This document shows, in pieces, positions 2,554 to 62,443 of a stretch of DNA of 63,461 nucleotides. The position numbers were made by a program, and so were the translations under genes. The notes under the pieces are model-generated. The model was given only the letters and a program-made list of their open reading frames with translations, was not told the DNA's origin and did not search any database. The stretch spans positions 1-63,461 of IMG/VR virus record IMGVR_UViG_3300009503_000033. One strand, given 5' to 3'. This DNA is from a virus. Lineage: Duplodnaviria; Caudoviricetes. Position 1 is the first letter of the stretch. Every line of letters begins with the position of its first letter.

Positions 2554-2562
2554 GGATGAGGT

Positions 2563-5475: not shown

Positions 5476-5476
5476 T

Positions 5477-7457: not shown

Positions 7458-7465
7458 GTGGTTAG

Positions 7466-8915: not shown

Positions 8916-8916
8916 T

Positions 8917-43549: not shown

Positions 43550-43834
43550 ATGAATAGGGTACAGGATGATATTGTAAGGGTAGGTAAGAAACCTAATTCT
43601 GTCTATGTACTGGCAGCATTGAATAAGCTACGTCAATATAGTGTCATAAAGATACAGGGATTTGGTATCAGGACTACTAAAGCCAGAAGGATAGCTGAAG
43701 ATGTAGTTAGTTTAACTGATAGTGAAATAGTATCATATACTCCTATTGAGGTACAGATACCATCTGGTAAGTCCTATGGCGTTGTAATTCTCATACGGAG
43801 GAAGACACATGAAGCTAAAGGAGATAAGAAATGA
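43550..43834 (+). CDS. Alba-like DNA/RNA-binding protein
   Basis: IVRVGKKP..YVLA, IKIQGFG..TTKA..IAE match the Alba pattern; 94 aa. Confidence 0.75.
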   Translation: MNRVQDDIVRVGKKPNSVYVLAALNKLRQYSVIKIQGFGIRTTKARRIAEDVVSLTDSEIVSYTPIEVQIPSGKSYGVVILIRRKTHEAKGDKK

Positions 43835-44111
43835 AGTGAGAAGGGCTAATGTAGAGAAGGTAAGGATATTCTTTAGTTCAGCACCTGATGATGAAGTATA
43901 TACAGCCAATGAGCTGGGCAATCTACTTAATCTGACTCCACAAGCTGTAAGAGGAGCAATACATAATAAGCTCATTAAAGACACCAAGCTGATTAGGAAA
44001 TTTAAAATTGGTCATAGTACGCTGTTTGGTACACCAAAGGCTATAGAGAAGCTAAAGAAGATGGTACAGGCAGAGTTTAATCACTACAAATGCAGAAAGG
44101 AGATTGAATGA
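43809..44111 (+). CDS. Winged-HTH DNA-binding protein
   Basis: YTANELGNLLNLTPQAVR. Confidence 0.65.
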   Translation: MKLKEIRNEVRRANVEKVRIFFSSAPDDEVYTANELGNLLNLTPQAVRGAIHNKLIKDTKLIRKFKIGHSTLFGTPKAIEKLKKMVQAEFNHYKCRKEIE

Positions 44112-45055
44112 AGTTAAGTAGAGCCATAGGGATGGTTAGAATAGCAGAAGAACAGGTATTGAGCTACCTCCAGAAGAGTAAGCTACCAGTGCCTAGGGCA
44201 GAACTGATGGAGAACTTAGGCTTAACATCCTTACAGCTTACCAGAATTTTAAATTCACTTAGGGAGCAAGGCTATGACATAAAAGGAGTCATTAGAGGAG
44301 GTGAGGAGTATTACTCTCTAGTAAGATATGGTAAGCTTACTACCGAGCATTACTATAAGGAACTGGGGGAAATAAGGACGCCCATACTGCTAACTGGTGA
44401 TTGGCATATTGGAGCTAAGTCCCATTCAGACATAGCCTACAGGGAGATGATAAAGGATATAGATGAATTTGACATACGCCATGTATTGGTAGCTGGTGAC
44501 GTGATACAGGGGTTGGGTGTTCATGCCTTGGAGCGTGAAGACCTATCCCTTTACTCTATAGATGAGCAGGTGGATGAGGCTATAGAGAAGCTTAAGGAAA
44601 TTCCATCAAGGGTAAAGGTCCATCTCATTATGGGTAACCATGAGCAAAAGATTAGGGCTGAGCATAAGATAGGGTTTGATGCCTGTGCTGCTATAGCTAA
44701 GGCACTAAGGAATGTAACTTACTATGGCTATACAGCTACCCTAACACTCAATAAGGACCATTCCATCTTTATGCTTCATGGTAAAGGAGGAGGCTCCTAT
44801 GCTAGTTCTTATGTTCTGGAGAAGGTATTCAGGAACCTTACTGAACGACCTTCTGTCCTATGCTTAGGACACTTCCATGAGCTAACTGTAGTTCATAAGC
44901 CCCCTAACTATCTTCTTGTCAAACCAGGTTGCTTGCAGCGTGAAACTATCTACATCATGTCTATGGGTGTAGCTGCTCAAGTAGGCTGGATAATACTGGA
45001 GGACTATAATGATGAACGTGCCACACCACTACTCAGATGCCCAAGGGTATACTAG
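44108..45055 (+). CDS. HTH-fused calcineurin-like metallophosphoesterase
   Basis: N-terminal wHTH; GDWHIG, AGD, GNHE, LHG, GHFH. Confidence 0.88.
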   Translation: MKLSRAIGMVRIAEEQVLSYLQKSKLPVPRAELMENLGLTSLQLTRILNSLREQGYDIKGVIRGGEEYYSLVRYGKLTTEHYYKELGEIRTPILLTGDWHIGAKSHSDIAYREMIKDIDEFDIRHVLVAGDVIQGLGVHALEREDLSLYSIDEQVDEAIEKLKEIPSRVKVHLIMGNHEQKIRAEHKIGFDACAAIAKALRNVTYYGYTATLTLNKDHSIFMLHGKGGGSYASSYVLEKVFRNLTERPSVLCLGHFHELTVVHKPPNYLLVKPGCLQRETIYIMSMGVAAQVGWIILEDYNDERATPLLRCPRVY

Positions 45056-45122: not shown

Positions 45123-48100
45123 ATGAATATAGTCTTCCTAGGGACAAGAGGTTTGGTAGAAGAACAGTCTGATACCCATAAGAGACATTCTGGATTACTC
45201 ATTAAGAGTAATACCACTAAGCTATTGATTGATGTAGGAGAGAAGAACTACTTAGACCTCAATCCTGATGCTATTATAGTAACCCATGCCCATCCTGACC
45301 ACTTCAACAAGGAAATTACTACCGTAGAGAAGCCTGTCTACTCAACTAAACAGATATTGAGGCTACTGAAGGGTGACATAAAGAACCCAGTTAGTGTGGA
45401 GGTAGAAAAGCCATTCAAGATAGGAGACATTACCTGTACTCTCTATAAGACCCTTCACTCTATCAAAACTCCATCAGTAGCTGTCAGGCTGGAGCACAAT
45501 GATAAAGTGGTAGTCTATACATCAGACGTGCTCTACATATATAATAGGGATAAGTTCCTTAATGGTGCTACTCTAGCTATAGGAGATGGGAGTAGCTTGA
45601 AGAAGGGAGGAATAGTCAGAAAGGATGAGGAACTAGGCATTTATGGTCATGAAGGTATACCTGACCAGATAGCTTGGTTCCTGAAGGCTGGTGTTAAGGC
45701 TATAGCCATTACTCACCTTGGTAAGGAGGCTATAGAGAAGGGTGATAAGGACTTAGAATTTATGTTACAAGAAATGGTTAAGGAGGAAGCTAATAGACTG
45801 GATAAACAGCCAGTTCCTATAATAGTGGCTAAGGATGGCTTGGAATTGAGTATGGAGGCTTTGGTAGACACATCAGGCATAATTTCACCTAAAGTCTTAC
45901 TACCAGAGGAAGTAAGACCCAAAGCAGGCATCATTCTGGTCAAGCCTCATGGTACATTACTCATTAAAGGTGACAAGCAGGCTATTGTGAAGTCTGTACA
46001 CCTTAAAGAGCACATAGATGAGCCATTATGGCTCATAGAGGATAAGAAGATATTGGGAATAGTGGTTTTGACAGAGCCTATAGTTATAGACCAGAAACAG
46101 TTTAAGGAACTTAGGGACAAACATAGGATTACTGATGAAGAAGCAGAGCAATGGGGCTTTAGTGACAAGAAAGAGCTGTATTATTACCCTGTAAAGGTAA
46201 TAGCTGCTTATGATACACCTTTAGAGATTGACTACCCTCAAGGTCCACAGCTATTTGTTAAGACTGATAACATAACTTGGCTTACTAAGCTATGGAAAGT
46301 TCCTTATGAACCAGAGAAAGCTACCAATGAACAGCTTGCTGATGACTATCGCCTATTGGTAGCTGTAATGGCTAAGTTACTCAAAGGTGAAAAGGTAAGG
46401 ATACAGGCTGGTAAGGATGAATACTTTAACAAGGATACTCTAAAGAACTTTGTAGTAAGGTTACTAAAAGAAGTAGCAAGGAGGAAGAAGGAAGGCACTA
46501 TAGATATGACCCTCCATATAGAGGAGTATAAGGAAGGTAGTCCATCATATGAATTGTGGAACTTAGTCAAGGATGGACTTACTGATGAAGAAATCAAGTT
46601 GCTTACTACTGCTTCTGAAGCTAAATTAGCTAAGTTCCCACCTCTGGAAAGTATTACTGAAGAATACCTCAAGACTCTATCAGATGAGGACTTGCTAAAG
46701 TTAAGGGACTATCTCCATCAACTATATCGTAAGGAAGGTAAGGTAACAGAGCCTATCTATGATGCTCATATACTGGTAGGCAAGGAAATTATAGCCAGAG
46801 GCATACCATACCCACCAGAAGAAGAGTGGGATGAGCTGGACAAGGCTACTGTCATACAATTCCTTGAATATCCTGAGCCAGCAGGTTTGGCTAAAGAGCT
46901 TACCATTAATGAGTTCCTATCTATGCTACCAGAGAGGTTTACCATATCAGAACCACCAGCTCAAATATTTGTAGCTGGAGGTATAGTCAATAGGGGTAAA
47001 GTAAGCTACCCACTGGAAGCAGGCAAGGAAGGTAGTGACATAGATATTATAATAAAACAACAATATCCAGATGATAGAATTATATATGAGCTATTGAGGA
47101 GATTGCCTCCAGATGTAGCTAAAGGAGTCCATGTTGTCTATGATAGAGAAGGTCCTATGATAGGCAATTGCATTCCCATATACCAATTAGCTTTCAGTAG
47201 AGTGACCAATCCTAAAGTAATAAGTCCATGGGAAGTACCATCCAAATTAGCTGAATTAGTCTTTGGTAAGCCAGTGGTGGGATTAAAGCCCAAGTCGGGC
47301 ATAGTAGGCAAGCTGGAATTCTGGTTAGCTAAGGATGCTTGGGAGCTATTTGCCTCTAAATATATAGAAGAGAATATACCTCTAATCATAGAACGTAAGT
47401 GTGATGGAAGACGATTCCAGCTACATGCTGACAAAGCTAAGGGTATAGCCAAGCTCTTTACAGAGGACAGGCAGAGGGATAGAGCACCAGCTATGCCTGA
47501 CATTATAAATGAGATTATGAAGGAAGGCAAGTTTGAAAATGTTATTTTGGACTGTGAAATAGAGGTATATGACATAGGGGATAAGAAACCAAAGGATGCA
47601 GAGACTAAAATTAGGCTGTTTGAGATGGTTCCAAGAGAGGATACGGCAAGCCTAACTACAGCAGAAAAGATACCAGAAAGCATGATAGATGGAGCAGTAG
47701 TGCAGGTATATGATATACTATGGCTTGATGGTAAGCCAGTGAATAACCTTACTACTCTAGAGAGGATAGAGCTAGTTCATAAGGTGGTTCCTAAAGGTCT
47801 TTACTGGTGGAGACCACTGCCTTATTACATAGCTACTAATCGTAAAGAGTTCTTTACATACCTAGAGAAAGTGAGGAGAGAGAATGGTTCAGAAGGGGCT
47901 ATAGTTAAGGCAGCTAATTCTACATATCCTATCAAGTATAGTGGTGAAAATAGGACTACTGAATGGTGTCTTACAGGAGGAAGTTTGATACTAACCGAGA
48001 ATGGATTTGAGCAAATAGCTTTTGTAAAAGAAGGAACTAGAGTGTTTGGAAAGGATGGTAAGTTACATAAAATTATTGCTAAGTCAGAAAGGCAACTACA

Positions 48101-50423
48101 GGATTGGGAAACTCTATATGATGTTAAGAGCTTCCATGGCATAAAGATAAGAGCTACTGGACAACACAAAGTCCTTCTTAGTGATGGCACATGGAAGCCT
48201 ATTGAGGAAGCTGAAGGTATTGCCTTCATTCCTCAGATAGAAGTGCCAAAAGAAGAAGCTCCTACTGAACTTGACTTGGAGTGGCATGGATATAAGAAAC
48301 ATATAGTATGTGATGAGGATTTCTGGAAGCTAATAGGATTCTGGATAGCTGAAGGCTCACTAGGCAATAATAGGAACTCGAAGTATAAGAGAGGAGAGCT
48401 AAAACTATCACAGAAGGATAGAAAAATACTAGAAAAATATGCCAAAATTATTGAGACAAAGTTGAACGTTAAGCCTAAAATTTATGACTATGATTGTTCT
48501 CATCTGATAGTGTGGGATAAGCCTTTCTGTGACTGGTTAAGTAAGCATTTCCTAGACAAGAATGATGATAAAACCTTACCTTGGTTTATAGCTTCTCTTC
48601 CTAGAAGCAAACTTATGGCTTTCCTAGAGGGTTGGAAAGAAGGAGATGGATATCGCAATAGAAAACTTATGATTTCAACTTCTGATAGAGGCTTGGCTGG
48701 AAGAGCTTATGCTATCTTAAGGAGCCTTGGTTTTGATGTGGGAATTACCTATCAGAAAATAAGAGGTTATAGAGATAATTTTAAAATTACTATTTCACAA
48801 GAACCATTCCATCAAAAGCATGTAATTGTGAAGAAGTTAGTGCCTACTGATGGTAAAGATAAAGTATATAACATACAGGTAGAAGATGTGGAGAGCTTTA
48901 TGACAGGGAATTTGGTACTTTCTAATTGTAAGATAAAAAACTTGAAGGAAATAGACCTTATGGTATGGAATAGGATACCAAAGGTAACCAAGGAAGGTAA
49001 GGAGCTGGACCAATATCAATATGATGTGGTATACCAGATACCCTGCAATAAATTCGATGAGTTCTATGGGGCTGTAAAGTGGAATGGCAAGTGCTATGCT
49101 CCCATAGGTAGAACTTATAGTACTACAGATAAATGTGAACGGGGAGACATAATTACAGTATTGGTCATTAGGGTTAGGGAGTATGAGAGAGAAGGAAAGA
49201 GGATATTTACCTTCATGTTTCCTTGTATTTCAAAAGATACTCCAGTCATTACTTCTGAAGGCTTACGTCCTGCTGGGGAAGTTAAAGTTGGCGATTACCT
49301 CTTGACAGAAAATGGTTTTGAACCAGTTAAAATTGTTGAGGAAGTTATTAAACCCGAGCAATACAATATTAAAATAGAATATTCTCCCTTCTTGATAAAG
49401 GTAGATGGTGAGCATCCATTTTTAGTAAATGAAAGAAATGCTGTGCCTCATTATCATAATTATAGCAAGACTTTCAAGCCTATTTGGAAGTTGGCTAAAG
49501 ACTTAAAACCAAATGATATCGTTTTGATGCCTAAAATAGCTGTAAGAAAGCCCTTTTTAAGTCCTGAATGGGGTAGGCTGATGGGAGCTTACCTAGGCGA
49601 TGGAACAATTAACAGTAAACGAAAAGGTTTTACTGAGTATGCTATAGTTTTCAACAAAATGGAGCAAGATTTAGTGGCTTTCTATAGACAAATTTTAAAT
49701 AAACTCTCTATCAAATCTTGGGTTAGCAATAGACATAAGAGCACCACAGAAATTTTATTTGAACTAAAGGAGGAAGAAGATTATATTAAAATGCTTTACA
49801 ATAATGGAAAGAAATTTGTTCCTAAAGCTATTCTTGAGAGTGATGAGGCATTCATTAAAGAGTTTATAGAAGGCTTAATCGATTCAGATGGAACTAGAGG
49901 TAAGCAAGTTCAATTTGTCAATACTAATTTAGATATCTGTCACTCATTAGTTTTACTATTACATAGACTTGGAATTGTTCCATCTTTCTCCATACGAGAA
50001 GTTAAGGGGCTTACTGGAAAAATAAAGAAATGCGGTCAAGTTGCTTGGTATCCAAATGCTAAAAGTAAACACTTCTGGGATTATGGGAACTACCTAGGTT
50101 TCAGAGTACTTGAAAAGAAGAAAATAGAGCCTGAACCATTAGTCAATTTAGTTACAGACTCCCATACATTTTGTGTTCCATACTGTTTAACTCACAACAC
50201 CTACAAGGAGAGGAGAACTGATAAGAAAGAACCCGATGGGCTTGAAGTGGTAGAAAGGCTGGCTGAAGTTGGTACAGCACCATTAGGAAGGTTAAGCGAA
50301 GCAGAACCCAAGAACAGACCTGAAGAGGACCTTTGGAAGGAAACTACCAAGGAAATGCTCAAATTGAGTGAGTATAAAAGGAAGTTATTAGAAAGAATAT
50401 TGGGAGTTGATAGTAATGAGTAG
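45123..50423 (+). CDS. Multidomain protein: MBL-fold hydrolase, ASCH-like domain, nucleotidyltransferase-like domain and ATP-dependent DNA ligase with two inteins
   Basis: THAHPDH; GIILVKPHG..LIKGDK; AGG...SDIDI; ligase motifs ERKCDG, LDCEI, YDIL, EGAIVK, W|CKIK, FP|TYKERRTDK. Confidence 0.85.
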   Translation: MNIVFLGTRGLVEEQSDTHKRHSGLLIKSNTTKLLIDVGEKNYLDLNPDAIIVTHAHPDHFNKEITTVEKPVYSTKQILRLLKGDIKNPVSVEVEKPFKIGDITCTLYKTLHSIKTPSVAVRLEHNDKVVVYTSDVLYIYNRDKFLNGATLAIGDGSSLKKGGIVRKDEELGIYGHEGIPDQIAWFLKAGVKAIAITHLGKEAIEKGDKDLEFMLQEMVKEEANRLDKQPVPIIVAKDGLELSMEALVDTSGIISPKVLLPEEVRPKAGIILVKPHGTLLIKGDKQAIVKSVHLKEHIDEPLWLIEDKKILGIVVLTEPIVIDQKQFKELRDKHRITDEEAEQWGFSDKKELYYYPVKVIAAYDTPLEIDYPQGPQLFVKTDNITWLTKLWKVPYEPEKATNEQLADDYRLLVAVMAKLLKGEKVRIQAGKDEYFNKDTLKNFVVRLLKEVARRKKEGTIDMTLHIEEYKEGSPSYELWNLVKDGLTDEEIKLLTTASEAKLAKFPPLESITEEYLKTLSDEDLLKLRDYLHQLYRKEGKVTEPIYDAHILVGKEIIARGIPYPPEEEWDELDKATVIQFLEYPEPAGLAKELTINEFLSMLPERFTISEPPAQIFVAGGIVNRGKVSYPLEAGKEGSDIDIIIKQQYPDDRIIYELLRRLPPDVAKGVHVVYDREGPMIGNCIPIYQLAFSRVTNPKVISPWEVPSKLAELVFGKPVVGLKPKSGIVGKLEFWLAKDAWELFASKYIEENIPLIIERKCDGRRFQLHADKAKGIAKLFTEDRQRDRAPAMPDIINEIMKEGKFENVILDCEIEVYDIGDKKPKDAETKIRLFEMVPREDTASLTTAEKIPESMIDGAVVQVYDILWLDGKPVNNLTTLERIELVHKVVPKGLYWWRPLPYYIATNRKEFFTYLEKVRRENGSEGAIVKAANSTYPIKYSGENRTTEWCLTGGSLILTENGFEQIAFVKEGTRVFGKDGKLHKIIAKSERQLQDWETLYDVKSFHGIKIRATGQHKVLLSDGTWKPIEEAEGIAFIPQIEVPKEEAPTELDLEWHGYKKHIVCDEDFWKLIGFWIAEGSLGNNRNSKYKRGELKLSQKDRKILEKYAKIIETKLNVKPKIYDYDCSHLIVWDKPFCDWLSKHFLDKNDDKTLPWFIASLPRSKLMAFLEGWKEGDGYRNRKLMISTSDRGLAGRAYAILRSLGFDVGITYQKIRGYRDNFKITISQEPFHQKHVIVKKLVPTDGKDKVYNIQVEDVESFMTGNLVLSNCKIKNLKEIDLMVWNRIPKVTKEGKELDQYQYDVVYQIPCNKFDEFYGAVKWNGKCYAPIGRTYSTTDKCERGDIITVLVIRVREYEREGKRIFTFMFPCISKDTPVITSEGLRPAGEVKVGDYLLTENGFEPVKIVEEVIKPEQYNIKIEYSPFLIKVDGEHPFLVNERNAVPHYHNYSKTFKPIWKLAKDLKPNDIVLMPKIAVRKPFLSPEWGRLMGAYLGDGTINSKRKGFTEYAIVFNKMEQDLVAFYRQILNKLSIKSWVSNRHKSTTEILFELKEEEDYIKMLYNNGKKFVPKAILESDEAFIKEFIEGLIDSDGTRGKQVQFVNTNLDICHSLVLLLHRLGIVPSFSIREVKGLTGKIKKCGQVAWYPNAKSKHFWDYGNYLGFRVLEKKKIEPEPLVNLVTDSHTFCVPYCLTHNTYKERRTDKKEPDGLEVVERLAEVGTAPLGRLSEAEPKNRPEEDLWKETTKEMLKLSEYKRKLLERILGVDSNE
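47967..48926 (+). mobile_element. Intein (320 aa, LAGLIDADG) in ligase motif V
   Basis: CLTGGS start, SN|C end, GFWIAEG and GWKEGDG motifs. Confidence 0.92.
49224..50198 (+). mobile_element. Intein (325 aa, LAGLIDADG) in the ligase motif VI region
   Basis: CISKDT start, HN|T end, GAYLGDG and GLIDSDG motifs. Confidence 0.93.
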
Positions 50424-50721
50424 CCTATTAGAAATATACGATGATAAAGAGCTGAAGAAAAAGGTAGAAACATTAGACTTAGGAGAGATAGAGGTAGGAA
50501 CTACAGTTAAAAAGATATATTACATAAAGAACACAACAGGTGGAACAATTACAAGGTTAGAATTTAAAATTGATTCTCCTTACATAAAGGTAGTTAGAGC
50601 ACCTAAACTACTGAAGCCAGATGAGGTAGGAGAGTTGGAATTGGAAATAAAGCCACCACTTGACATCAGAAAAGGCTTAAATACCAAGGTAGAAATATCA
50701 TTTAGAGTAATATATAGTTGA
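50407..50721 (+). CDS. Ig-like small protein
   Basis: LDLG..YIKN.G..L.P.E beta-sandwich pattern. Confidence 0.55.
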   Translation: MIVMSSLLEIYDDKELKKKVETLDLGEIEVGTTVKKIYYIKNTTGGTITRLEFKIDSPYIKVVRAPKLLKPDEVGELELEIKPPLDIRKGLNTKVEISFRVIYS

Positions 50722-50735
50722 AGGAAGTGGATTGA

Positions 50736-51263
50736 ATGACAGCTACATGTGATGTGGTGGAATGTAATGGTGCTTCACCTGGTACATGGACAGTAGTAAC
50801 TTCAGTCAGATTCTGTACAGCAGACACTTATAACCCAGGGCTGTCATATCCTATACCCATAGTTTCTGGACAGACAAAGAGAAGCTACTGGAAGTCAATA
50901 TGTCTATCCTTTGGAGGAACTTACACTCAAATTACCAATGTCTGTATATATACTGATGGTTCTGACTTTGGTACAGGAATCACTACTTATATAGGTGATG
51001 AAACCTTACCTGCCAACAGCTATCAACAGGCAACAGGAGTTCAAGGAGACACTGGTGATGAGATGGTTGCTACCCACTCAGGCATTACCAGTAAAACGGC
51101 ATTCTTTACCTATACTTCTACCAATAAGAAGCTGGTGGATGCAGGACCAATTACTGGTACAGCTAAGAGCAAGCACGTAGTCCTTCAGATGGATGTATCA
51201 GATACTGCCACACCAGGTGTTAAAGGACCAGAAACCATCACTTGGACTTATGATGAAATATAA
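50736..51263 (+). CDS. Virion structural protein (fibre base or decoration)
   Basis: Thr/Gly-rich beta protein (SYWK, VVLQM, TWTYDEI). Confidence 0.6.
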   Translation: MTATCDVVECNGASPGTWTVVTSVRFCTADTYNPGLSYPIPIVSGQTKRSYWKSICLSFGGTYTQITNVCIYTDGSDFGTGITTYIGDETLPANSYQQATGVQGDTGDEMVATHSGITSKTAFFTYTSTNKKLVDAGPITGTAKSKHVVLQMDVSDTATPGVKGPETITWTYDEI

Positions 51264-51279
51264 TTAGAAGGGCATAACT

Positions 51280-51630
51280 ATGGGAATCCAATCCCTAAGA
51301 TACTTCTGGAAAGCCACATACAAGGATGGCTCTTCCATCTGTCAGTTTGAAGAAGGGAAGGAGAGGCTATTTTCTGAAATAGACCAAAGTAGGTTAGAGA
51401 GCTTTGCTTGGGTGCCTTTTAATAGCTCTGACCCTGTTATCATCATTAAACTTGAACCTTGGCAGAGGTTAATAGCAGTTAGACGTAATTTTATAACTAC
51501 AGGACCAGAGGGAGAGAGCAGAAAGACTATCTATCTCTTAGGATGGCAATCGACTATTAATGGTAGAAACTATAAGAGCATTTGTTATATAGACCCATCA
51601 GAGGGAACTATAACCATGGAAGGGAAGTAA
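51280..51630 (+). CDS. Hypothetical protein
   Basis: W.A.YKDGS...QF and YLLGWQ motifs seen in viral structural cassettes. Confidence 0.6.
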   Translation: MGIQSLRYFWKATYKDGSSICQFEEGKERLFSEIDQSRLESFAWVPFNSSDPVIIIKLEPWQRLIAVRRNFITTGPEGESRKTIYLLGWQSTINGRNYKSICYIDPSEGTITMEGK

Positions 51631-51631
51631 A

Positions 51632-52009
51632 ATGAACTTCTGTTTCAGGTGTGGTGAATGCTGTAAGGGAGAAATTAGGCTCACAAGGGAGGAAATAAGC
51701 TTAATCAAGGAGAGAACTGGGGTAGAATTAAGAGGAATACAGCTGGAAGGCAATAAAGTGCTGGTGAAAGTCAATCCTTGTCCCTTCTTAGAAGGCAATC
51801 TCTGTACTATATATGACATAAGACCATGTGCGTGCAGAATGTATCACTGTGGTAGATTGAGTCCTACTGATAGCCCTAAGAAAACTATAGGAGAAGTCAG
51901 GGAGGTAATGAAGAAGAATAATGAATATAGACTCTGGTTAGAGCAAATGCAGGCAGAAGCTGCTGCTTGGGGCAACAGGCATGGATGGAACTGGAGGAAG
52001 GTAGGCTAA
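51632..52009 (+). CDS. YkgJ/CxxCxxCC family Fe-S/Zn protein
   Basis: CFRCGECC, CPFL..NLCTIY..RP.AC. Confidence 0.85.
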   Translation: MNFCFRCGECCKGEIRLTREEISLIKERTGVELRGIQLEGNKVLVKVNPCPFLEGNLCTIYDIRPCACRMYHCGRLSPTDSPKKTIGEVREVMKKNNEYRLWLEQMQAEAAAWGNRHGWNWRKVG

Positions 52010-53724
52010 TGGCAACTACTTGGTACTTTAGGAATATTAATGCAACTACTGGTCCTACTTCTAAAGCCTCTCCTGATACTGATGCCTTCCCTTCTGTACC
52101 AAGTGACAAAAATACCCCCAAGCAAATGCTTTCTGTCAAAGGAACTGGACAGACTAGTGTTTCTGGAGCTTATGCTACCACAGCCAATTGTTATACCTTA
52201 GCAAGAATATTTGTAAGTCCTCCCTTAGCAGCTCAGACACTGACAGGAGGACAGACTGGATATAAGATTGGAATAGCCATTAAGGAAAGCAATACCTCAA
52301 TGAACTTGTATCATAGAGCATTTGTCTATATATGGAGGAGTGGCTCTGGCAACGTAAAGACAATCATATCACCTACCTCCTGTGGTACGGAGCACGGTAC
52401 TTCTGAGACTGGATGTGTAATTACAGCTACAGGAGCTTCAGGAGACTTCTTCATCCAAGCGGGAGACAGAATTGTTGTAGAGGAATGGTGGGACATAAGG
52501 AATACTAAAAATACCTCTTATACTGCTACCTATTACTGGGATGGAACTACTGATGTAGTGGAAAGCACAGCTACTTCAAATGCAGCTGGTTTCTTCTACT
52601 GCCCACAAACTCTAACTCTTTTACCTACCCAGAAGACATTTAGCTTGGATACATACCTCAAGAGAGTAGCCTTTAAGACATATACAATGGATGCTGCTTT
52701 GAAGGGAGCTAAGTCCAAAACCGTGTCATTGGATTCGGCTCTTTCTACATCTAAGTCTGTTTCAAGTTCTATAGATACCTTACTTTCATTAAAGAAAATA
52801 AAGTCTATGGACATAGACAGTGCTTTATATAGAAGGCAATTAAAAATTGCTCAGTTAGACAGTGCTTTATCGAAGGGTGTTTCTAAGGATATTCCTTTAG
52901 ATGTAACTCTTTCTGTATCCAGAAGCATTCTTAGCTCCATAGATGCGCTCCTGTCTACGAAGAGAACTAAGGCTATGGATATCGATGCTGCTTTATCCAA
53001 GAGTAGCTTGAAAACCACTCAATTTGATGCTTCCTTAGTCAAGACTATACTTAAAAACGTTCTTTCTGATGCAGCTCTTTCTGCTGCTTCTTATAAGACC
53101 TTTTCTATTGGTGCTGTTCTGAAGGAAACTTCTTCTAGGGAGTTCCAACTTGATTCTGTCCTTCAAAAGACTTTATTTAAGGCACTAGCATCAGACAGTG
53201 TTTTAAAGAAAACAAAGCAAGCAGAATTTGGTTTGGATGCTGTATTGGAAGCAACAATGGGAGTAGAAAAGACCAAATACTTGGAAATTACTTCTGTTTT
53301 AAGCAAACTAAATGTTGCAGGCTTTGATTTGGATACACTCCTTGTAAAGAGAGTTAAAGCTACCTTCTTATTGGATGCGTATCTATCTGGAGAGGTTAAG
53401 CTTCCTTCAGGAGGAGTTTATTTCATCCCTCCAAGAAGGAGAACTGTAATACTGCCTATTTCAATTACTCCCTATTCAATAGCTAAGGAAATTAGGACAA
53501 TTGAAGGCAGAATTGCTTTAGAGCACTTGTCATTTAGACCATTAATAGGGAGGATTGTTCATTTAGGAAAGGTAGCTGCTCCTGTCATAGGTAGCTTTGC
53601 TTCTTCTATTGGCTTGAGCTTAGCCTTGAGAAGTACCTTGCTAAGCACCACAAGTGTGGAGTTACCCATTAAGGGTAAGAAGAGCTATAAGCTGATTATT
53701 GATTTACTGACGGAGGATTTATAA
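52009..53724 (+). CDS. Fibre protein: globular N-terminal domain plus 14-aa repeat shaft
   Basis: Start re-called at the TAATG overlap; about 18 repeats with an [LI]DxxL core. Confidence 0.7.
   Translation: MATTWYFRNINATTGPTSKASPDTDAFPSVPSDKNTPKQMLSVKGTGQTSVSGAYATTANCYTLARIFVSPPLAAQTLTGGQTGYKIGIAIKESNTSMNLYHRAFVYIWRSGSGNVKTIISPTSCGTEHGTSETGCVITATGASGDFFIQAGDRIVVEEWWDIRNTKNTSYTATYYWDGTTDVVESTATSNAAGFFYCPQTLTLLPTQKTFSLDTYLKRVAFKTYTMDAALKGAKSKTVSLDSALSTSKSVSSSIDTLLSLKKIKSMDIDSALYRRQLKIAQLDSALSKGVSKDIPLDVTLSVSRSILSSIDALLSTKRTKAMDIDAALSKSSLKTTQFDASLVKTILKNVLSDAALSAASYKTFSIGAVLKETSSREFQLDSVLQKTLFKALASDSVLKKTKQAEFGLDAVLEATMGVEKTKYLEITSVLSKLNVAGFDLDTLLVKRVKATFLLDAYLSGEVKLPSGGVYFIPPRRRTVILPISITPYSIAKEIRTIEGRIALEHLSFRPLIGRIVHLGKVAAPVIGSFASSIGLSLALRSTLLSTTSVELPIKGKKSYKLIIDLLTEDL
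52633..53390 (+). repeat. About 18 tandem 14-aa repeats Kxxx[LI]DxxLxxxxx
   Basis: KTFSLDTYL / KTYTMDAAL / KTVSLDSAL / KSMDIDSAL / KIAQLDSAL and others. Confidence 0.85.
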
Positions 53725-53741
53725 TAAGAGTAAGAATTATA

Positions 53742-53760
53742 TATTTATGTTACATAAATT
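53742..53760. promoter_or_regulatory. Palindromic site TATTTATGTTACATAAATT next to a TTATATA box
   Basis: Near-perfect family member upstream of ORF 53773. Confidence 0.7.
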
Positions 53761-53772
53761 GGGTGTGATATT

Positions 53773-53997
53773 ATGTCTGAAGATAGTGAACTGACTTTGA
53801 TGCCTTGTCCCTTCTGGAATAACTATACTGTATGCCCTCTGAGGAAGAGGATGTATGGACTACCACCACCAGAGAGGTTTAAGCCTGTAGCAGGGCTAAA
53901 GTTCCCTATTAGATGTAAGTTTGCTACAATGTATAGATGTGTATGGGTAAAGGACTACTATATGTATTTAGAACCTATAGAGGAGGTGGAAGAATGA
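53773..53997 (+). CDS. Small Cys-rich protein
   Basis: Four Cys; ATGA-coupled to the next gene. Confidence 0.6.
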   Translation: MSEDSELTLMPCPFWNNYTVCPLRKRMYGLPPPERFKPVAGLKFPIRCKFATMYRCVWVKDYYMYLEPIEEVEE

Positions 53998-56984
53998 CTT
54001 ATATATATGAGGAAGATATAGCCCTAGAAAGCCTAGCTGAAGTAGAGCCAGAGCTAGTAGAGACTCTACAGAAGAAGATAGCAGGTAGGTATAATGTCTA
54101 TCCACCTAATAATAAACCAGAACCTTTTGTCATACAAAGGCATGAAATTGGTGATTCAAACCACTTTGACTTTAGGTTTAAGGTAAATGGGTATTTGATT
54201 GGTTGGTCAGTGGTTGGGTTCAGTAAGGACAATCCAGCTACCATAGAGACCTTGCTGGCTAACATAGGTAAGGGCTTTAGAGCTGAAACTAAAGCCTCGC
54301 AACCTTGTATTGCTCCAGACACTCTAGTCTTTACTAGGGATGGACTAAAGGAAGCAGGGAGAATAACTATGAACGACTTGTTGCTAGGGAAAGATGGAGT
54401 ATTCCATAGAGTTGTTCAAATAGACAGAGGCATTAAGGATAAGGGTTATATAATTAAGACTAGTTATGGAGTAGAACAAAAGGTTACTCAACATCATCCT
54501 TACTTGGTAGTTATTAAAGCCTTCTGTCCTTATCATGGCTACTTTGATGTAAAAAGAACCTTAGAAAGCACTAGCCATTGTGAGTATTGTAGATTAGATA
54601 AAGTTCTTTACCCAATAATTGAATGGAAGGAGGCTAAAGACTTAGAGGTAAGGGACATAGTGCTATTTCCAAAGGAGATTAGAGAGTATTGGAAGCGTCC
54701 AATAAGGCAGGTCTCACCTCAATATGGAAGGTTACTTGGGTTCTTTATAGGAGATGGAACTAGGTGGAATAAGAATGGGGTCAGGCTACTCTTCAATGCT
54801 TTGAAAGAGGAATCTAAAGCTGAATATTATAATGCCATAGTCAGGGAACTAAGTGGTAATACAGGTTCCATAAGAAGGGAGAAGAACGTTCTGATACTTT
54901 CATTTACTAATGAAACTTCTAGATGCTTGCTGAAGGATGGATATGAAAATGAGACCAAAAGCATTAAATTAGAGTTCCTAGGGTATCCAAAAGGGTTCAG
55001 AAAAGAGTTGTTGTTTGGATTGATTGATTCAGATGGCTATTGGATAAGTCAAGACTGTTTCTATTTTGCAACAAGCAATCCTAGGGTAGCTGAAGGTTTC
55101 TGGTTACTTTGCTCTTCTTTAGGCATTCCATGCTCTATGAGGTACCGAGAGAATACTTCTAAACTTGTATCAAGAACAAAGAAGAAGTTTGAATTTATGG
55201 GTTACTTGAACAAGGAGCATAACGAAATACTTGACCTTGGCTATTACTGGGGCTTTAGAGTTATCGACAAGAAAGACTTGAACTGTCCAGAGTATATAAA
55301 CATAGTTACTAATGACCATACTATATTAGTACCATTTGCTATTACTCACAATACCATCTGGCTTAATGTTGAGGGTCAGGTCAAGCCTGGTGAGGTAGGG
55401 GCTGGAGTGGAAAAGCCTGGCAAGTTCACCATACTAACAGGTACTAAGAAGTACAAGGATGCTAGAGTGATATTTGGGTGTCAAAAACCCTATTTTCATG
55501 AGTACTTCCTTAAGGATGGGGTGTACTTTAAGGATTGGACTAGGATAGTGTTCAGACAGATTAAACAGGAGAAGCTAGAACCAGAAACTAAACGTCCTAC
55601 AGGTAAAACAGAGCTATTCTGGAGGTTTATGATACCCAAGGACCAGAAACCATATGCTCTGGCTAGAGGTATGAAGGAAGGATGGTACCCTCCAGAAGGC
55701 ATAATTCCATTTCCATATGACTGGGCTAAAAAGAACTATCCAGAGGATGTTGCTAAGTGGGAAGAATATATAAAGCAGGCTACTAAGGAAACTAAGTTAA
55801 GCAAGGCTAAGTTCTGTATTGTTGAGTTCAGGTACAAAGGTCCTAAGCATATCAGAGATGTATGGAGGAGGGAATGGCATTTGCTTATAGATGATGGTAA
55901 AGAGAAGGTTATGGACTTTGTAACCACCGAACATCCTATCTATATAATGCCTCTGGCTTATGTATATAATGGTAGGATAGATAAGAAATGGTTTGGCTAT
56001 GAAGGTAACTTGAAGCCACTGGAGCTTTGGAATCCTAACAAGGAGTTAAATGGCATAGTGGAAGTACTGATAGAAGGAGATATGGATATAGATAGCAAGA
56101 TAGTGAATGATAAGGAAGTATATATTATAGACATAGATAGAGGTATTATGAAGGGTAAGTATGCTATGGCTCAAGAGGAGGAAGATAGTCCCTTCTATAT
56201 ATTTAATGAACTAACTAAGCTGGCTCTAGCTGCCGATGCTGTATGGGTATATGATAAGCACACTATAGAAGGAGTTCCCCACTGGGACTTAAGGTTCAGG
56301 CTTAACATAGAAGGTGAATGGGAATCTGTGTTACATGAATTTAGTGGTATGGATAAGCCACTCCATGAAGCAGGTATTGAGGAACCTGTAGAAGTGATAG
56401 CTAAGATATGTAAAGACCTTAGCTGGATAGACCCTAACTTTAAGGAAGGTAGACGTAAGGTAGGGGGTATATGGACAGAAGTAGAGAGAATAGACCAAGG
56501 TAAGGCTATAATATATAATGCTACAGATGATTTCTGGTCATTTAACTTGGATGGAGAAATCCTTAGTGGTTATATAATAGCCAAAAGGACTGATGGAGGT
56601 TGGGTAATTATGAAGAGCAGGCTACCTTCACCTAAGCTCTCTAAGGAAGGAACAGGCAATCCAGTTACTGGGGACTACTATAAGGAATTTAAAATTGAAC
56701 AAAAGAAGGGATGGGACTACTTTATTGTTCACATCTATGACTCCAGAGCCTTTACCAGAGCTGAACCTGCTGAAATGGTAAAGGAATACCTACCTGATTT
56801 AAAATTACCAGAGGGTGTTGATGTTAGAATAGGTCTATATCCAGTGGTAGGAGCATTACACCATGTAAGGGTCATGAATGTAAAGTTCCCATCTACATGG
56901 ACAGTAGCTGAAGCTGTAGCTTGGATTAAGAAGAATAACCTTCATAAGTGGGGTAGAGAACGCATAGTTAAGAAGCAACAGTAA
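53994..56984 (+). CDS. Multidomain protein with repeated LigD-type 3'-phosphoesterase (PE)-like domains and an intein
   Basis: FVIQRH...HFDFR..NG.L.GWSV and WL.VEG..KPGE.GAG; later copy VYDKH...HWDLR; start at ATG 53994 with GGAGGTG RBS. Confidence 0.75.
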   Translation: MTYIYEEDIALESLAEVEPELVETLQKKIAGRYNVYPPNNKPEPFVIQRHEIGDSNHFDFRFKVNGYLIGWSVVGFSKDNPATIETLLANIGKGFRAETKASQPCIAPDTLVFTRDGLKEAGRITMNDLLLGKDGVFHRVVQIDRGIKDKGYIIKTSYGVEQKVTQHHPYLVVIKAFCPYHGYFDVKRTLESTSHCEYCRLDKVLYPIIEWKEAKDLEVRDIVLFPKEIREYWKRPIRQVSPQYGRLLGFFIGDGTRWNKNGVRLLFNALKEESKAEYYNAIVRELSGNTGSIRREKNVLILSFTNETSRCLLKDGYENETKSIKLEFLGYPKGFRKELLFGLIDSDGYWISQDCFYFATSNPRVAEGFWLLCSSLGIPCSMRYRENTSKLVSRTKKKFEFMGYLNKEHNEILDLGYYWGFRVIDKKDLNCPEYINIVTNDHTILVPFAITHNTIWLNVEGQVKPGEVGAGVEKPGKFTILTGTKKYKDARVIFGCQKPYFHEYFLKDGVYFKDWTRIVFRQIKQEKLEPETKRPTGKTELFWRFMIPKDQKPYALARGMKEGWYPPEGIIPFPYDWAKKNYPEDVAKWEEYIKQATKETKLSKAKFCIVEFRYKGPKHIRDVWRREWHLLIDDGKEKVMDFVTTEHPIYIMPLAYVYNGRIDKKWFGYEGNLKPLELWNPNKELNGIVEVLIEGDMDIDSKIVNDKEVYIIDIDRGIMKGKYAMAQEEEDSPFYIFNELTKLALAADAVWVYDKHTIEGVPHWDLRFRLNIEGEWESVLHEFSGMDKPLHEAGIEEPVEVIAKICKDLSWIDPNFKEGRRKVGGIWTEVERIDQGKAIIYNATDDFWSFNLDGEILSGYIIAKRTDGGWVIMKSRLPSPKLSKEGTGNPVTGDYYKEFKIEQKKGWDYFIVHIYDSRAFTRAEPAEMVKEYLPDLKLPEGVDVRIGLYPVVGALHHVRVMNVKFPSTWTVAEAVAWIKKNNLHKWGRERIVKKQQ
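54306..55352 (+). mobile_element. Intein (349 aa, LAGLIDADG, with a Cys/His insert) in the PE domain
   Basis: CIAPDT start, HN|T end, GFFIGDG and GLIDSDG motifs. Confidence 0.92.
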
Positions 56985-57014: not shown

Positions 57015-58160
57015 GTGATAGCTATGACTGAAGCCATTAAGGAATTGATAGTTGAGTTAGAAGGTATTAAAGAAGAGAATGAGCTGTTAAAGGCACAGTT
57101 ACGGTCTATGACATCCACTTTGGCATCTGACTTCATAGTACTGTCAGAAGCACCCAAAATTGTCAAAGGCATTGCTATAGCTGAAGGTACTTGGAATGGT
57201 GATTACTACCCAGCAGAGGCACTTAGGGAAATACCCAATGTGGGTTCCATACCAGTGTTAGTGGAGCATGGTGATAGTGAAGAGTTTGGAACTAAGGCTG
57301 TTGGGTTAGTTAAAGAATGGGAATACATACCACTGATTAATGCTGTAGCTTACCAAGCAGAAATTACTGATGACAGGGCTTGGCAACTGATTAAAGAGGG
57401 TAAGCTTACTGGCATCAGTCTTCAGTCCTTTGTAGCTAAGGGTAATGGAGGACATAGGGTATTATATATGAAACCATTTGAAGCCAGTCTGACCTCCAAT
57501 CCAGCTGTAAAATATGCCTATGTAGCCTTTAGCAAAATGTATTTAAATGAGAAAGGTTCAATAAAGAGTGATATTATGACCGAAGTAGGTAAGGAAGAAG
57601 TTAAGACAGAAGCTGTTAGTGCTACAGCTCCTAATGCTACAGTTGAGGTAAAGGCTGACACTGCTACAGCACCTACATCAGCACCTAAGGAGTATGAGAT
57701 GGTACAGCTTGAAGTAAAGGACAATGAAGTGATGGTTATAGATGTGATGCCTGAGGAGGAAGCATTGAAGAAGAAGAGACCAGTAGCTAAGGTACCAGCA
57801 GGAACGTACTATTACTATGGGTCCTATGGATACCCACCGTACTACTATGGTTATCCATATGGATATGCCTATGGCTATCCATCTGGGTATGGCTATCCTA
57901 CCCCTAAGAAGAGGAAGCTAACTGATGACTACGAGGATGCTACTGCCATATTTGATGCTATCAAGAAGCTAGAGGACAAGCTTGCTGCTGTGGAGAATAA
58001 GATAAGTGAAATGACAGCTAGTCTGACCAAGGCACCTGAGGCTCCTAAGGCACCTGAGGTTGCTGAGGCTCCAAAGGCACCTGAAGCAGCTAAGCCTGAC
58101 TTGGGTAAGCTCACCCCTGCTGAGTTGATAGTACTAGAACAGAGGAAGAAAGGTTTATGA
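57015..58160 (+). CDS. Prohead protease with scaffold-like C-terminal extension
   Basis: KGIAI.EG.WNG..Y, VEH, G.LTGIS, EASL...PA; YGYP and KAPEA low-complexity tail; directly before the capsid gene. Confidence 0.8.
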   Translation: MIAMTEAIKELIVELEGIKEENELLKAQLRSMTSTLASDFIVLSEAPKIVKGIAIAEGTWNGDYYPAEALREIPNVGSIPVLVEHGDSEEFGTKAVGLVKEWEYIPLINAVAYQAEITDDRAWQLIKEGKLTGISLQSFVAKGNGGHRVLYMKPFEASLTSNPAVKYAYVAFSKMYLNEKGSIKSDIMTEVGKEEVKTEAVSATAPNATVEVKADTATAPTSAPKEYEMVQLEVKDNEVMVIDVMPEEEALKKKRPVAKVPAGTYYYYGSYGYPPYYYGYPYGYAYGYPSGYGYPTPKKRKLTDDYEDATAIFDAIKKLEDKLAAVENKISEMTASLTKAPEAPKAPEVAEAPKAPEAAKPDLGKLTPAELIVLEQRKKGL

Positions 58161-58463: not shown

Positions 58464-59330
58464 ATGATAAGCATGCAGGAAGAAATAGCTAAGTTAGTAG
58501 AGTTACCAGATGTTACAGCCGTAACTCCTAAGGCAATACTTGATGTCATAGAGGCATCCAGAAGGAAGAGAGCTACTGGGTTACAGCTCTTAAGGCACAA
58601 TGATATCCTTAAGAGGACCAAGGCTAGGTCAGCTAATGTACCCAAGAGAGGCATACTTACTGCTGTAGAGGTCAGTGAAGGAGCTGACATTAGTGAGCAA
58701 AGCATTCCTGATGTCACTTATCAGACTACAACGGTTAGTGCTGTAAAGATAGGTACTTACTTCAAGATTACCAAGGAAGCAATTGATGCTACTGAAATTG
58801 ATGTCATTAATGACTTGCTGGAGGATGCTGGAGCAGCTATAGCTGACAAGGAAGATGACCTTATATATGATGCTATACTGTCAGCACCTACCAGCAATAT
58901 TCAAGCCAGTGCTAATGCAGGCAAAATTGTCTTTGCTGACATAGTCAAGGCTAAGTCTAAGGTTGAGGCAAGCAATTTTGAGCCTGACACTGTGGTTCTT
59001 AGTCCAGCCAGAGCTGATGACTTGCTTGTTGATGCTGCTGCTATTGCTAGGTTTGTCGATAAGTCTGAACTACCTGAAAATGAGCAGCTGGTTAGACAGC
59101 TTGGTAGGCTTGCTGGGCTTGATGTCATAGTGTCCAATGCTGTACCAGACACTACAGTGTTGGTGCTTGACAGAAAAGCCCTTGGCTGGTACTTACCAAA
59201 GAGAGATGTGGATGTGAAGAGGGATGAATCAATAACAACTGACTCTATAGAGTTTGCCGTGTTCAAGGAGTTTGGAGTAGGAGTTACACAGGCTGATGCA
59301 ATATGCTTCCTGACGGTTGCTCCAGCCTAA
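58464..59330 (+). CDS. Major capsid protein (HK97 fold)
   Basis: V.EGADI, K.G.YFKIT.E.I, A..IA.KED, G.LAGL.VIVS patterns. Confidence 0.9.
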   Translation: MISMQEEIAKLVELPDVTAVTPKAILDVIEASRRKRATGLQLLRHNDILKRTKARSANVPKRGILTAVEVSEGADISEQSIPDVTYQTTTVSAVKIGTYFKITKEAIDATEIDVINDLLEDAGAAIADKEDDLIYDAILSAPTSNIQASANAGKIVFADIVKAKSKVEASNFEPDTVVLSPARADDLLVDAAAIARFVDKSELPENEQLVRQLGRLAGLDVIVSNAVPDTTVLVLDRKALGWYLPKRDVDVKRDESITTDSIEFAVFKEFGVGVTQADAICFLTVAPA

Positions 59331-62291: not shown

Positions 62292-62443
62292 TTGATAGTA
62301 CTATGGCTAAAGCTTATTTTACCCTAATGGAACACTTTGGTTGGACCTTAGAGGATGTGTCTAAGTTAGATTGGTTACAGATTAGGTGGTTGCTAGAGGA
62401 AATACACAGAAGGATGCCTAAGCTCCCTAGGAGGCAATTATAA
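62282..62443 (+). CDS. Frameshift extension of the chaperone (gpGT-like)
   Basis: -1 frame reads YNLVDSTMAKAYFTLMEHFGWTLEDVSKLDW...; its stop overlaps the tape measure ATG (TAATG). Confidence 0.7.
   Translation, partial: YNLVDSTMAKAYFTLMEHFGWTLEDVSKLDWLQIRWLLEEIHRRMPKLPRRQL

Follow-up and report, generated by a model that had tools for sequence, protein, structure and literature searches.

The Ligase and Phosphoesterase Genes of the Head Operon

The stretch of DNA considered here, 63,461 bp long and called the window throughout, is the whole of the IMG/VR virus record IMGVR_UViG_3300009503_000033, and our subject is a pair of large enzyme genes lying among its head genes. The first is a single open reading frame (ORF) at 45123-50423 on the plus strand, encoding the ligase protein P0001 of 1766 amino acids (aa), or 1121 aa once spliced. 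The second, also a single plus-strand ORF, runs from 53937 to 56984 and encodes the 1015-aa protein P0002, which is built of domains resembling the phosphoesterase (PE) domain of LigD; its likely start is 53994 (Met20) rather than 53937, and the database copy starts at Met20. An original prediction, made from the DNA letters, had placed nucleic acid end-healing and sealing enzymes here between the portal and the prohead protease, and its coordinates proved exact by ORF call. What the window holds is the local form of a module, split over two genes, interrupted by three inteins and set inside the capsid-assembly operon (Table 1).

Table 1. Features of the ligase-PE module, of the surrounding head operon and of other parts of the window.
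Feature	Coordinates	Strand	Details
MBL-fold hydrolase domain	45123..45872	+	P0001 aa 1-250
ASCH (PUA-like) domain	45909..46286	+	P0001 aa 263-388, AlphaFold2 (AF2) model
Helical region, fold without assignment	46287..46880	+	P0001 aa 389-586, helices in model
Pol-beta-superfamily (minimal) nucleotidyltransferase-like domain (probable)	46881..47219	+	P0001 aa 587-699; D639, D641, D674
ATP-dependent DNA ligase adenylation domain	47358..47966	+	P0001 aa 746-948, motif I K759
Intein 1, LAGLIDADG	47967..48926	+	320 aa; just before ligase motif V
Ligase segment with motif V and putative OB domain	48927..49223	+	P0001 aa 1269-1367
Intein 2, LAGLIDADG	49224..50198	+	325 aa; inside putative ligase motif VI (R-x-D-K end)
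Ligase C-terminal tail: R-x-D-K, conserved following helix, stop	50199..50423	+	
N-terminus and first half of PE-like d1	53937..54305	+	H69, H76, D78, R80
Intein 3, LAGLIDADG-like	54306..55352	+	349 aa; after invariant Q-P of d1
Second half of d1 and strongly conserved linker	55353..55796	+	Domain hidden Markov model matches d1 472-545, lk 547-620
PE-like d2, degenerate	55803..56219	+	Without His/His/Asp motif
PE-like d3	56235..56606	+	H775, H782, D784, R786
Conserved C-terminal domain (ct), fold without relative, stop	56607..56984	+	
Capsid maturation protease (fold level)	57015..58160	+	381 aa; core aa 41-165; H85, S135
Major capsid protein, HK97 type	58464..59330	+	PHROG major head families E 2.7e-22
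Portal	42314..43549	+	Pfam Portal_Mu (PF06074) E 3e-15, Phage_portal E 3.5e-11, PHROG portal families
Metallophosphoesterase (Mre11/SbcD/PolD-DP1-like)	44108..45055	+	Pfam Metallophos_2 (PF12850) E 6e-11
Five intervening genes between ligase and PE genes	50407..53724	+	104 aa Ig-like, 175 aa, 116 aa, 125 aa CxxCxxCC, 585 aa
Tail genes	from 62.4 kb through 8 kb (across junction)		Family matches
Large terminase, GpA-type ATPase and RNaseH-like nuclease	11795-13081	minus	
RadA/Rad51 recombinase, archaeal-type, intein-interrupted	33991-36015		
ERCC4-family nuclease	36020-36679		Directly after RadA

The Ligase Protein

P0001 had been predicted to consist of MBL, ASCH-like, helical, nucleotidyltransferase-like and ligase parts, and this content is borne out by Pfam, by fold matches and by invariant motifs. 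The MBL domain matches Pfam PF12706 (Lactamase_B_2) at E 4.5e-8 (33.4 bits against a cut-off of 27), and its metal motif HxHxDH, which reads HAHPDH at aa 55-60, is kept in 9-10 of 10 homologues. The Pfam ASCH model (PF04266) has no match anywhere in the genome, and the ASCH domain was recognised in an AF2 model that covers aa 251-745 and draws on 13 sequences, its mean predicted local distance difference test score (pLDDT) being 73.7. A Foldseek search of the PDB with this domain gave nine matches at E ≤ 1e-3, all of them ASCH-type and including 2dp9 (E 6.4e-7) and ZmASCH, and the comparison tool VIA aligned 121 residues to 5guq at Z 11.1 and a root-mean-square deviation (rmsd) of 3.3. At the level of the modelled fold, the ASCH domain is clear. 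The helical region that follows (aa 389-586) is conserved in relatives; for it, VIA returned unspecific helical matches, none of them convincing.

The domain of about 110 aa beyond the helices is, on the evidence of the model, a probable Pol-beta-type nucleotidyltransferase. Its Gly, its D-x-D pair and a third Asp (G369, D389, D391 and D424 in alignment A3) are invariant in all 13 aligned sequences. The best VIA fold matches are to minimal nucleotidyltransferases but middling, namely 2rff (Z 6.2, rmsd 4.6, 94 residues aligned), 1no5 (Z 5.8) and 8xeh (Z 5.6), a Z of about 6 being in the range that the tool calls common, and Pfam has no match to the domain.

The ligase itself matches Pfam PF01068 at E 3e-16, and its best match in the PDB is an archaeal DNA ligase (4eq5, E 3e-4). 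The K, D and G of motif I (K759-x-D-G) are each kept in 22 of 22 homologues, as are the Glu of motif III and the E-G of motif IV, and the K-x-K of motif V is kept in 23 of 23. Past intein 1, the segment with motif V and the putative OB domain is 53% identical to the homologue P0011 across the splice junction, and the Pfam scan of P0001 gave no DNA_ligase_A_C match for the OB domain. Directly after intein 2 comes R-R-T-D-K, whose R-x-D-K pattern we take to be ligase motif VI, and the tail beyond it is conserved in relatives and resembles the C-terminus of 4eq5. The conserved peptide at this end was also considered as a capsid-targeting signal and rejected, since archaeal DNA ligases normally end in a similar stretch beyond motif VI.

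The PE Protein

Taken alone, P0002 gives two partial matches to LigD_N (PF13298), with E-values of 0.011 and 0.0016 and scores of 16.3 and 14.5 bits against a cut-off of 31.1, and a phmmer search of the PDB with its aa 474-1015 found no match, so that a family profile was needed. A database search with the C-terminal 542 aa returned 73 relatives. The profile of 33 intein-free relatives matches the archaeal PE enzyme CkoPE (3P4H) at E 1.7e-10 over residues 4-118 of 118, and MbaPE (3P43) at E 1.3e-7; one relative, P0098, scores 61.2 bits on LigD_N. When the parts of the protein were compared with each other by hhalign, d1 was linked to d3 at 94% (E 1.2e-7), d2 to d3 at 96.8% (E 2.4e-10) and d1 to d2 at 42%. 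Judged by these alignments, P0002 is a tandem of three homologous PE-like domains, one of them degenerate. The forecast of two clear domains and one degenerate one is upheld by the hhalign repeats, by the 3P4H profile match and by a d2 that is without the motif.

The motif in question is H-x6-H-x-D-x-R, kept in d1 and d3 and missing from d2. In the 33 sequences, conservation of its His, His, Asp and Arg reaches 90% or more, against a mean column identity of only 35%. In the numbering of the relative P0006 these residues are H48, H55, D57 and R59 of d1 and H410, H417, D419 and R421 of d3, and they align to His9, His15, Asp17 and Arg19 of CkoPE. According to the report on that enzyme, His9, His15 and Asp17 bind Mn, Arg19 binds the scissile phosphate, and a further phosphate-binding residue, His51, is essential for activity (PMC3082917). 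The ct domain after d3 is 43-56% identical to its relatives and is present in 110 of 194 homologues. This set of 194 combines 72 sequences from the search with the C-terminal 542 aa and 122 from a family search, the window's own copy being excluded.

The Inteins

Three inteins interrupt the two proteins, as judged by their domains, by their junction residues (an N-terminal Cys, and a C-terminal Asn followed by Cys or Thr) and by the existence of intein-free orthologues. Intein 1 matches Pfam LAGLIDADG_3 (E 8.3e-20), Intein_splicing and Hint_2, with boundaries TEW/C...SN/CKIK (slashes mark the junctions); intein 2 matches Hom_end and, in PHROG, intein-bearing proteins, with boundaries FMFP/C...HN/TYKERRTDK; intein 3 has weak matches to LAGLIDADG_3 and Hom_end, with boundaries ASQP/C...HN/TIWL. 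Inteins 2 and 3 are 33% identical to each other (BLASTP E 2.3e-46). The homologue P0011 is intein-free and aligns straight across all three junctions, and intein 3 is missing from 33 PE homologues. The insertion point of intein 3 is the strand of d1 that holds the position equivalent to His51. Inteins that sit in conserved ligase and PE motifs and are missing from relatives fit sites under functional constraint.

A fourth intein (Hint, LAGLIDADG), distantly similar to these three, lies in RadA at about 34327-35232. In the distantly related locus L026 the portal gene is intein-bearing and a free-standing homing-endonuclease-like gene directly follows it (L026:2301-4568 and L026:4552-5838). About one third of the PE homologues (P0016, P0018, P0019 and P0046, for example) have a Cys-containing insert of 40-60 aa in d1 ("C..CNEWK...", alignment A1 columns ~195-275), and it sits where the window's P0002 has its intein.

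Conservation, Protease Fusion and Synteny in Relatives

The two proteins of the window are frequently a single protein elsewhere. Ligase and PE domains share one polypeptide in 57 of the 194 homologues, and in 34 of the 194 the nucleotidyltransferase is present as well; ASCH occurs in 20 and MBL in 5. Many of the homologues are fragments, and these counts are therefore lower bounds. The pattern of co-occurrence marks nucleotidyltransferase, ligase and PE as the core and MBL and ASCH as accessories. P0011 joins both window proteins end to end, free of inteins and in the same domain order, and on this comparison of sequences ligase and PE form a single functional unit. The PE family is a large one: among 1.84 billion representative sequences, 1429 representative clusters match it at E ≤ 1e-3 and 469 at E ≤ 1e-30.

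The 381-aa gene downstream of the PE gene is accepted, at the level of the modelled fold, as a maturation protease with a scaffold-like tail. It has no Pfam or PHROG match, and Peptidase_S78 and S78_2 found nothing in the genome at E ≤ 10; another search reached S78_2 at E 0.16 only, and none of 18 family members matches the S78 models. Against the PDB the family profile gave low-complexity matches alone, and the protein Atlas offered weak leads (scores 0.80-0.81) in which S78 clusters rank 4 and 7. An AF2 model on 18 homologues has an overall pLDDT of 49, with 60-88 in the core. In Foldseek searches this core matches herpesvirus assemblins in the PDB (E 2.2e-4, probability 1.00) and has 54 matches at E ≤ 1e-3 in BFVD, the named ones being mostly prohead proteases. 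H85 and S135, 50 residues apart, are invariant in 18 of 18 sequences, and the tail after the core is disordered, coiled-coil and scaffold-like. The fold match and the invariant His and Ser agree with the prohead protease that had been predicted downstream.

The protease genes of relatives are longer (560-737 aa in alignment A2; L002:12328-14409 is an example), with long tails that hold Tyr/Pro-rich and Glu/Lys-rich low-complexity runs. C2H2 zinc fingers occur in the tails of 7 of 18 and chitin-binding CBM_14 domains in 5 of 18, which is unusual for a protease-scaffold protein. A complex prediction for the N-terminal 180 aa of the protease with the ct domain of the PE protein scored 0.00, which speaks neither for nor against binding.

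A scan of IMG/VR gave 25 related loci, two of which (L007 and L008) are near-duplicates. In all 23 loci that have upstream sequence, the PE ORF is preceded on its own strand by the ligase ORF, and a protease homologue lies downstream of the PE gene on the same strand in 21 of the 23 that have downstream sequence; in the other two of these 23 it is within 2 kb on the opposite strand. The protease is adjacent to or fused with the PE gene in 12 of the 21 co-oriented loci. A major capsid protein homologue follows the protease in the related loci, and the same order of ligase, PE, protease and capsid genes is found in L028, a contig of a metagenome-assembled genome (MAG). The order ligase, PE, protease, major capsid protein is conserved synteny across the relatives, and the head-operon position pointed out in the window is thus kept in the IMG/VR loci.

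In some relatives the protease has become part of the enzyme. A 1464-aa ORF of L026, placed between the intein-bearing portal gene and the major capsid protein gene, encodes the ligase, the PE domains and then a complete protease core (hhalign 98.9%, E 2.7e-17; hmmsearch 1.5e-23). This protease domain stands at the C-terminal end of 10 of the 194 homologues, and 6 of these also have the ligase. P0076 instead carries Pfam Peptidase_S78 (26.2 bits against a cut-off of 21); hhalign found no link between the window's protease family and this S78 region, which places the protease of P0076 in a different branch. Two fused proteins have gained further domains: P0173 adds a D12 DNA adenine methylase, and P0167 a pyrimidine-dimer glycosylase domain that scores just above the cut-off. 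When longer proteins with the protease domain were sought by word matching, none turned up, which is weak evidence. The fused ligase-PE ORF at L003:11567-11899 has an in-frame stop inside the ct domain and is either a sequencing error or a truncated variant.

Neighbouring Genes and the Virus

The metallophosphoesterase that had been said to precede the ligase gene is indeed there by its Pfam match. It also matches the PHROG family "DNA repair exonuclease" (E 1.6e-16), its best PDB relatives are PolD small subunits (E 2.5e-5), and from its sequence it is a probable exonuclease. A homologue was found in 0 of the 25 related loci, and the gene is outside the conserved module. Among the five genes between the ligase and PE genes, the Pfam CxxCxxCC match has E 2.7e-10 and the Ig-like match is weak; the Ig-like gene alone recurs, after the PE gene in L005, L007 and L008. 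The CxxCxxCC protein (51632-52009) is putatively zinc- or iron-chelating. The 585-aa protein (51967-53724) has no Pfam or PHROG match and consists of a beta-rich N-terminal part followed by many degenerate LD(S/A)xL(S/K) peptide repeats; a DNA-level tandem repeat finder was nearly blank on the gene, so that the repeats are old or diverged. An Alba-like small protein is encoded directly 3' of the portal gene (43550-43834), and a GT4 glycosyltransferase (41155-42333) with a weakly similar 369-aa neighbour lies directly upstream of it (40079-42333 together); GT4 homologues recur upstream of the module in L009 and L022.

The record carries the class label "direct terminal repeats", and positions 1-123 of the window are identical to 63339-63461. 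This end overlap of 123 nt, together with a tail-gene ORF that spans the junction (ORFs 62443-63459 and 2-1567), identifies the record as a complete circular assembly of about 63,338 bp, and the label is uninformative on the physical ends of the genome. The GpA type of the large terminase gives only a hint on these ends; its gene is on the other strand, some 30 kb away from the portal and outside the head operon. The virus is a tailed virus with an HK97-type capsid. Its replication and recombination block (RadA, ERCC4 and PolB) was identified at 31-40 kb, away from the head genes as had been predicted. Archaeal-type genes of the genome are the Alba-like protein, the intein-bearing RadA, the ERCC4 nuclease and the family B polymerase. 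Relatives of the PE gene are found on contigs binned with MAGs of Thermoprotei, Archaeoglobales and Methanosarcinales and with one bacterial-named MAG, and one is in the published ANME-1 virus ANMV-1. The archaeal-type genes, the archaeal MAG contigs and ANMV-1 make an archaeal host likely, and the large lineage of uncultured tailed viruses in which the module is conserved probably infects archaea of seep and hydrothermal sediments.

A Proposed Role and Its Alternatives

We propose that the module is a LigD-like DNA heal-and-seal machine that is loaded into the procapsid and delivered with the genome, and we give this proposal an even chance. Incorporation into the particle, delivery, viral DNA as the substrate and the order of the reactions are all what we infer. 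The proteins would be made late alongside the head proteins and built into the procapsid, would remain with the packaged DNA and exit with it at infection, and would act on the incoming genome ahead of any viral gene expression. There the nuclease and phosphoesterase domains would clean blocked 3' ends, the nucleotidyltransferase would fill or extend them, and the ligase would seal nicks or join the genome ends. The task may be circularisation, or the repair either of damage suffered in the particle or of cuts made by the host. The substrate is more likely DNA than RNA, judging from a DNA-type ligase whose closest solved relative is an archaeal DNA ligase and from fusion partners that act on DNA.

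The best available argument for entry into the procapsid is the protease fusion. Capsid maturation proteases act inside the procapsid, as in HK97-type and herpesvirus assembly. Where ligase and PE domains share a chain with such a protease, the polyprotein would have to enter the procapsid, and the fused sequences suggest just this. By the usual logic of fusions, the separate proteins of the window's virus probably associate with the same assembly.

There are several observations that weigh against this proposal. Fusion and gene position are indirect, and a fused protease could serve polyprotein processing alone. Of the 194 homologues, 184 are without a protease fusion; nine of the 21 co-oriented loci have 2-8 kb of additional genes between the PE gene and the protease, and in the window five unrelated genes split the ligase gene from the PE gene. 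A search of the genome for the Ku family (PF02735) gave nothing at E ≤ 10, and no known capsid-targeting signal was recognised in the module proteins. The fold evidence for the nucleotidyltransferase is middling, as its Z of about 6 indicates, and the ct domain is unrelated to the PE domains by hhalign and drew no lead from the protein Atlas. The active site of the PE domains is also unlike that of CkoPE, to judge from the alignment alone: the position of His51 is an invariant Gln (Gln-Pro) in d1, d3 has a K-x-C...W pattern with no conserved His there, and a conserved Trp replaces Tyr55. With the equivalent of His51 not conserved, the canonical 3'-phosphoesterase reaction is not assured, and proteins of the P0002 type are, by their sequences, a distinct PE branch with a remodelled active site. 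Pfam scans of P0001 and its fused relatives gave no primase-type (AEP) polymerase domain. The original prediction of a kit for nonhomologous end joining (NHEJ) or RNA repair stands in part: the enzyme kit is real and the catalytic motifs of its ligase, MBL and nucleotidyltransferase domains are conserved, whereas neither Ku nor a primase-type polymerase was found and RNA repair is disfavoured.

The same genes could also belong to enzymes that are expressed late and never packaged, and that process replicated DNA (nicks, ends and branches) in the producing cell to make it fit for packaging, the head operon being then a matter of co-regulation. T4 needs its own ligase and a junction-resolving nuclease for productive packaging, and enzyme genes that are co-oriented and tightly spaced with head genes fit co-expression as well as co-assembly. 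The unfused majority of the homologues and the variable genes that can sit between the PE gene and the protease agree with this explanation too. It is, however, hard to see why a cytoplasmic enzyme should recurrently be fused at its C-terminus to a maturation protease; the L026 locus has no other protease homologue by tblastn, its fused ORF being the one between the portal and capsid genes, and for replication and recombination the virus already has a block of its own elsewhere. We consider enzymes of the producing cell a possible but rather unlikely explanation.

A good deal less probable is an RNA repair kit of the type of T4 Pnkp and Rnl1, healing and sealing RNA cut by host anticodon nucleases or by CRISPR-associated collateral RNases. 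Pol-beta-type nucleotidyltransferases do include enzymes that add to RNA 3' ends, ASCH domains include RNA-binding proteins and a ribonuclease (the ZmASCH entries), some relatives weakly match the Pfam model RNA_ligase (PF09414), and PE enzymes resect 3' ribonucleotides, according to one report (PMC3082917). Yet relatives score much higher on PF01068 than on PF09414 (P0173, for example, 155.7 bits against 30.4), the ligase has a putative OB domain and an R-x-D-K end like motif VI, and the fused partners in relatives, the D12 methylase and the pyrimidine-dimer glycosylase, are DNA enzymes; the Pfam scans gave no polynucleotide kinase domain, though RNA ends with a 5'-OH need one. It is very improbable that the proteins are structural remnants, that is, internal head or scaffold-associated proteins with enzyme folds whose activity is lost. 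Such decay would suit the missing metal-binding motif of d2, the lack of the canonical phosphate-binding His in d1 and d3 by alignment, and window proteins that score below the Pfam LigD_N cut-off. It would not suit ligase motifs I, III, IV and V that are invariant or nearly so in 22-23 sequences, an HxHxDH motif kept in 9-10 of 10 MBL homologues, nucleotidyltransferase carboxylates invariant in 13 of 13, or the degree to which His, His, Asp and Arg of d1 and d3 stand out from a mean column identity of 35%. The suggestion of catalytically dead PE and ligase domains, which had been raised beside the original prediction, thus runs counter to what the conserved ligase motifs and the d1/d3 metal site indicate. 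For the lineage as a whole, we hold tentatively, at somewhat below an even chance, that it loads a LigD-like machine for DNA breaks and nicks (nucleotidyltransferase, ligase and PE domains, with nuclease, methylase or glycosylase domains as optional parts) through association with or fusion to the protease, and injects it to seal, circularise or repair DNA before expression begins.

Significance

The conserved synteny of ligase and PE genes with head genes, the single chains of ligase and PE, the fusions to the capsid protease and the large PE family are new. If the enzymes are in the particle, tailed archaeal viruses bring along enzymes of their own for sealing DNA and repairing its ends. It would then be clear how a genome that was damaged in a hot or long-lived sediment particle, or cut on entry, can become fit for replication in hosts that mostly lack end joining. 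Among prokaryotic viruses this would also be the first DNA ligation and repair system to travel in the particle, and the injected proteins known from phages would gain a ligase-based class. Tethering to the protease would then be a new natural route for loading cargo into HK97-fold shells, which matters for encapsulin-like engineering. Regardless of packaging, the sequences make up a large reservoir, as yet untapped, of fused ligases, nucleotidyltransferases and phosphoesterases that are probably thermostable, and at least one public record (that of ANMV-1) names such a gene just "ATP-dependent DNA ligase".

Comparison with Known Systems

In composition the module resembles LigD, together with CkoPE and MbaPE: a ligase, a 3'-end-healing domain of PE fold and, probably, a nucleotide-adding domain, often in one polypeptide. 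The match of d3 to CkoPE covers the whole length, and the Mn-binding His, His and Asp and the Arg are kept. The nucleotide-adding domain of the module, however, is probably of the Pol-beta or minimal nucleotidyltransferase type, and that of bacterial LigD is a primase-type POL. The module repeats the PE-like domain three times in tandem, with one copy degenerate, and the equivalent of His51 is Gln or variable and that of Tyr55 is Trp. Unlike LigD and the NHEJ system, moreover, the module is virus-encoded in a capsid operon and sometimes fused to a protease, and Ku was not found in the genome.

Among the viruses, ANMV-1 has a gene (KP703175.1, 3200-5800) which domain profiles read as an 866-aa chain of ligase, OB, PE d1, linker and d2. 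It is a member of the same fused family, which its record calls "ATP-dependent DNA ligase" alone, and unlike the window it is without d3 and the ct domain. The protease profile had no match in four ORFs of ANMV-1 (22-1176, 1913-3193, 3200-5800 and 5868-9368), and a tblastn comparison of 14.8 kb of the virus with the protease, capsid and portal proteins of the window gave no match. A different solution is known from the mycobacteriophages Corndog and Omega, which carry Ku and use the host LigD to circularise their genomes. They are likewise tailed viruses that rely on end-joining enzymes to circularise the incoming genome, as is proposed here; they bring Ku and borrow the host ligase, whereas the window's virus brings the ligase and end-processing domains, with no Ku found. 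In a preprint on Asgard viruses, the replication genes include one called "ATP-dependent DNA ligase (ligD)"; the main text of the ANME-1 virome paper does not contain the word "ligase". The literature searched, supplementary tables being outside the search, gave no account of a triple-PE protein, of ligase and PE genes combined within a head operon or of protease fusions.

Two further systems bear on the idea of delivery. Multi-domain polyvalent proteins of phages and conjugative elements, whose genes adjoin the portal and head genes, are predicted to be packaged and injected, as one study describes (Iyer et al. 2017, PMC5512222). Like these proteins and T4 Alt, the enzymes of the module are very large, multi-domain and encoded beside the portal and head genes, their packaging being here proposed, and relatives add a DNA methylase domain, a typical polyvalent component. 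The proposed tether here is the maturation protease, and there it is MuF or the portal; the content here is a set for ligation and end repair. The text of PMC5512222 does not contain "LigD", and the three mentions of ligases in it concern RNA ligases that do not associate with 2H domains. African swine fever virus packages the ligase NP419L, the Pol X enzyme O174L and the AP endonuclease E296R, a set that has been proposed to repair viral DNA before replication, according to a published account (PMC12172490). The likeness to the module lies in the virus-borne combination of an ATP-dependent ligase with a nuclease that cleans 3' ends and with a minimal enzyme of Pol-beta type, which in the module is a probable one. 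African swine fever virus is, however, one of the nucleocytoplasmic large DNA viruses of eukaryotes, and its proteins are small and separate, where the module has multi-domain ones; its end-cleaner is an AP endonuclease, against a PE fold and an MBL domain here, and its packaging is known from proteomics, whereas packaging here is proposed. By analogy, African swine fever virus is the nearest functional precedent for the module, and the polyvalent proteins of phages are the nearest conceptual one.

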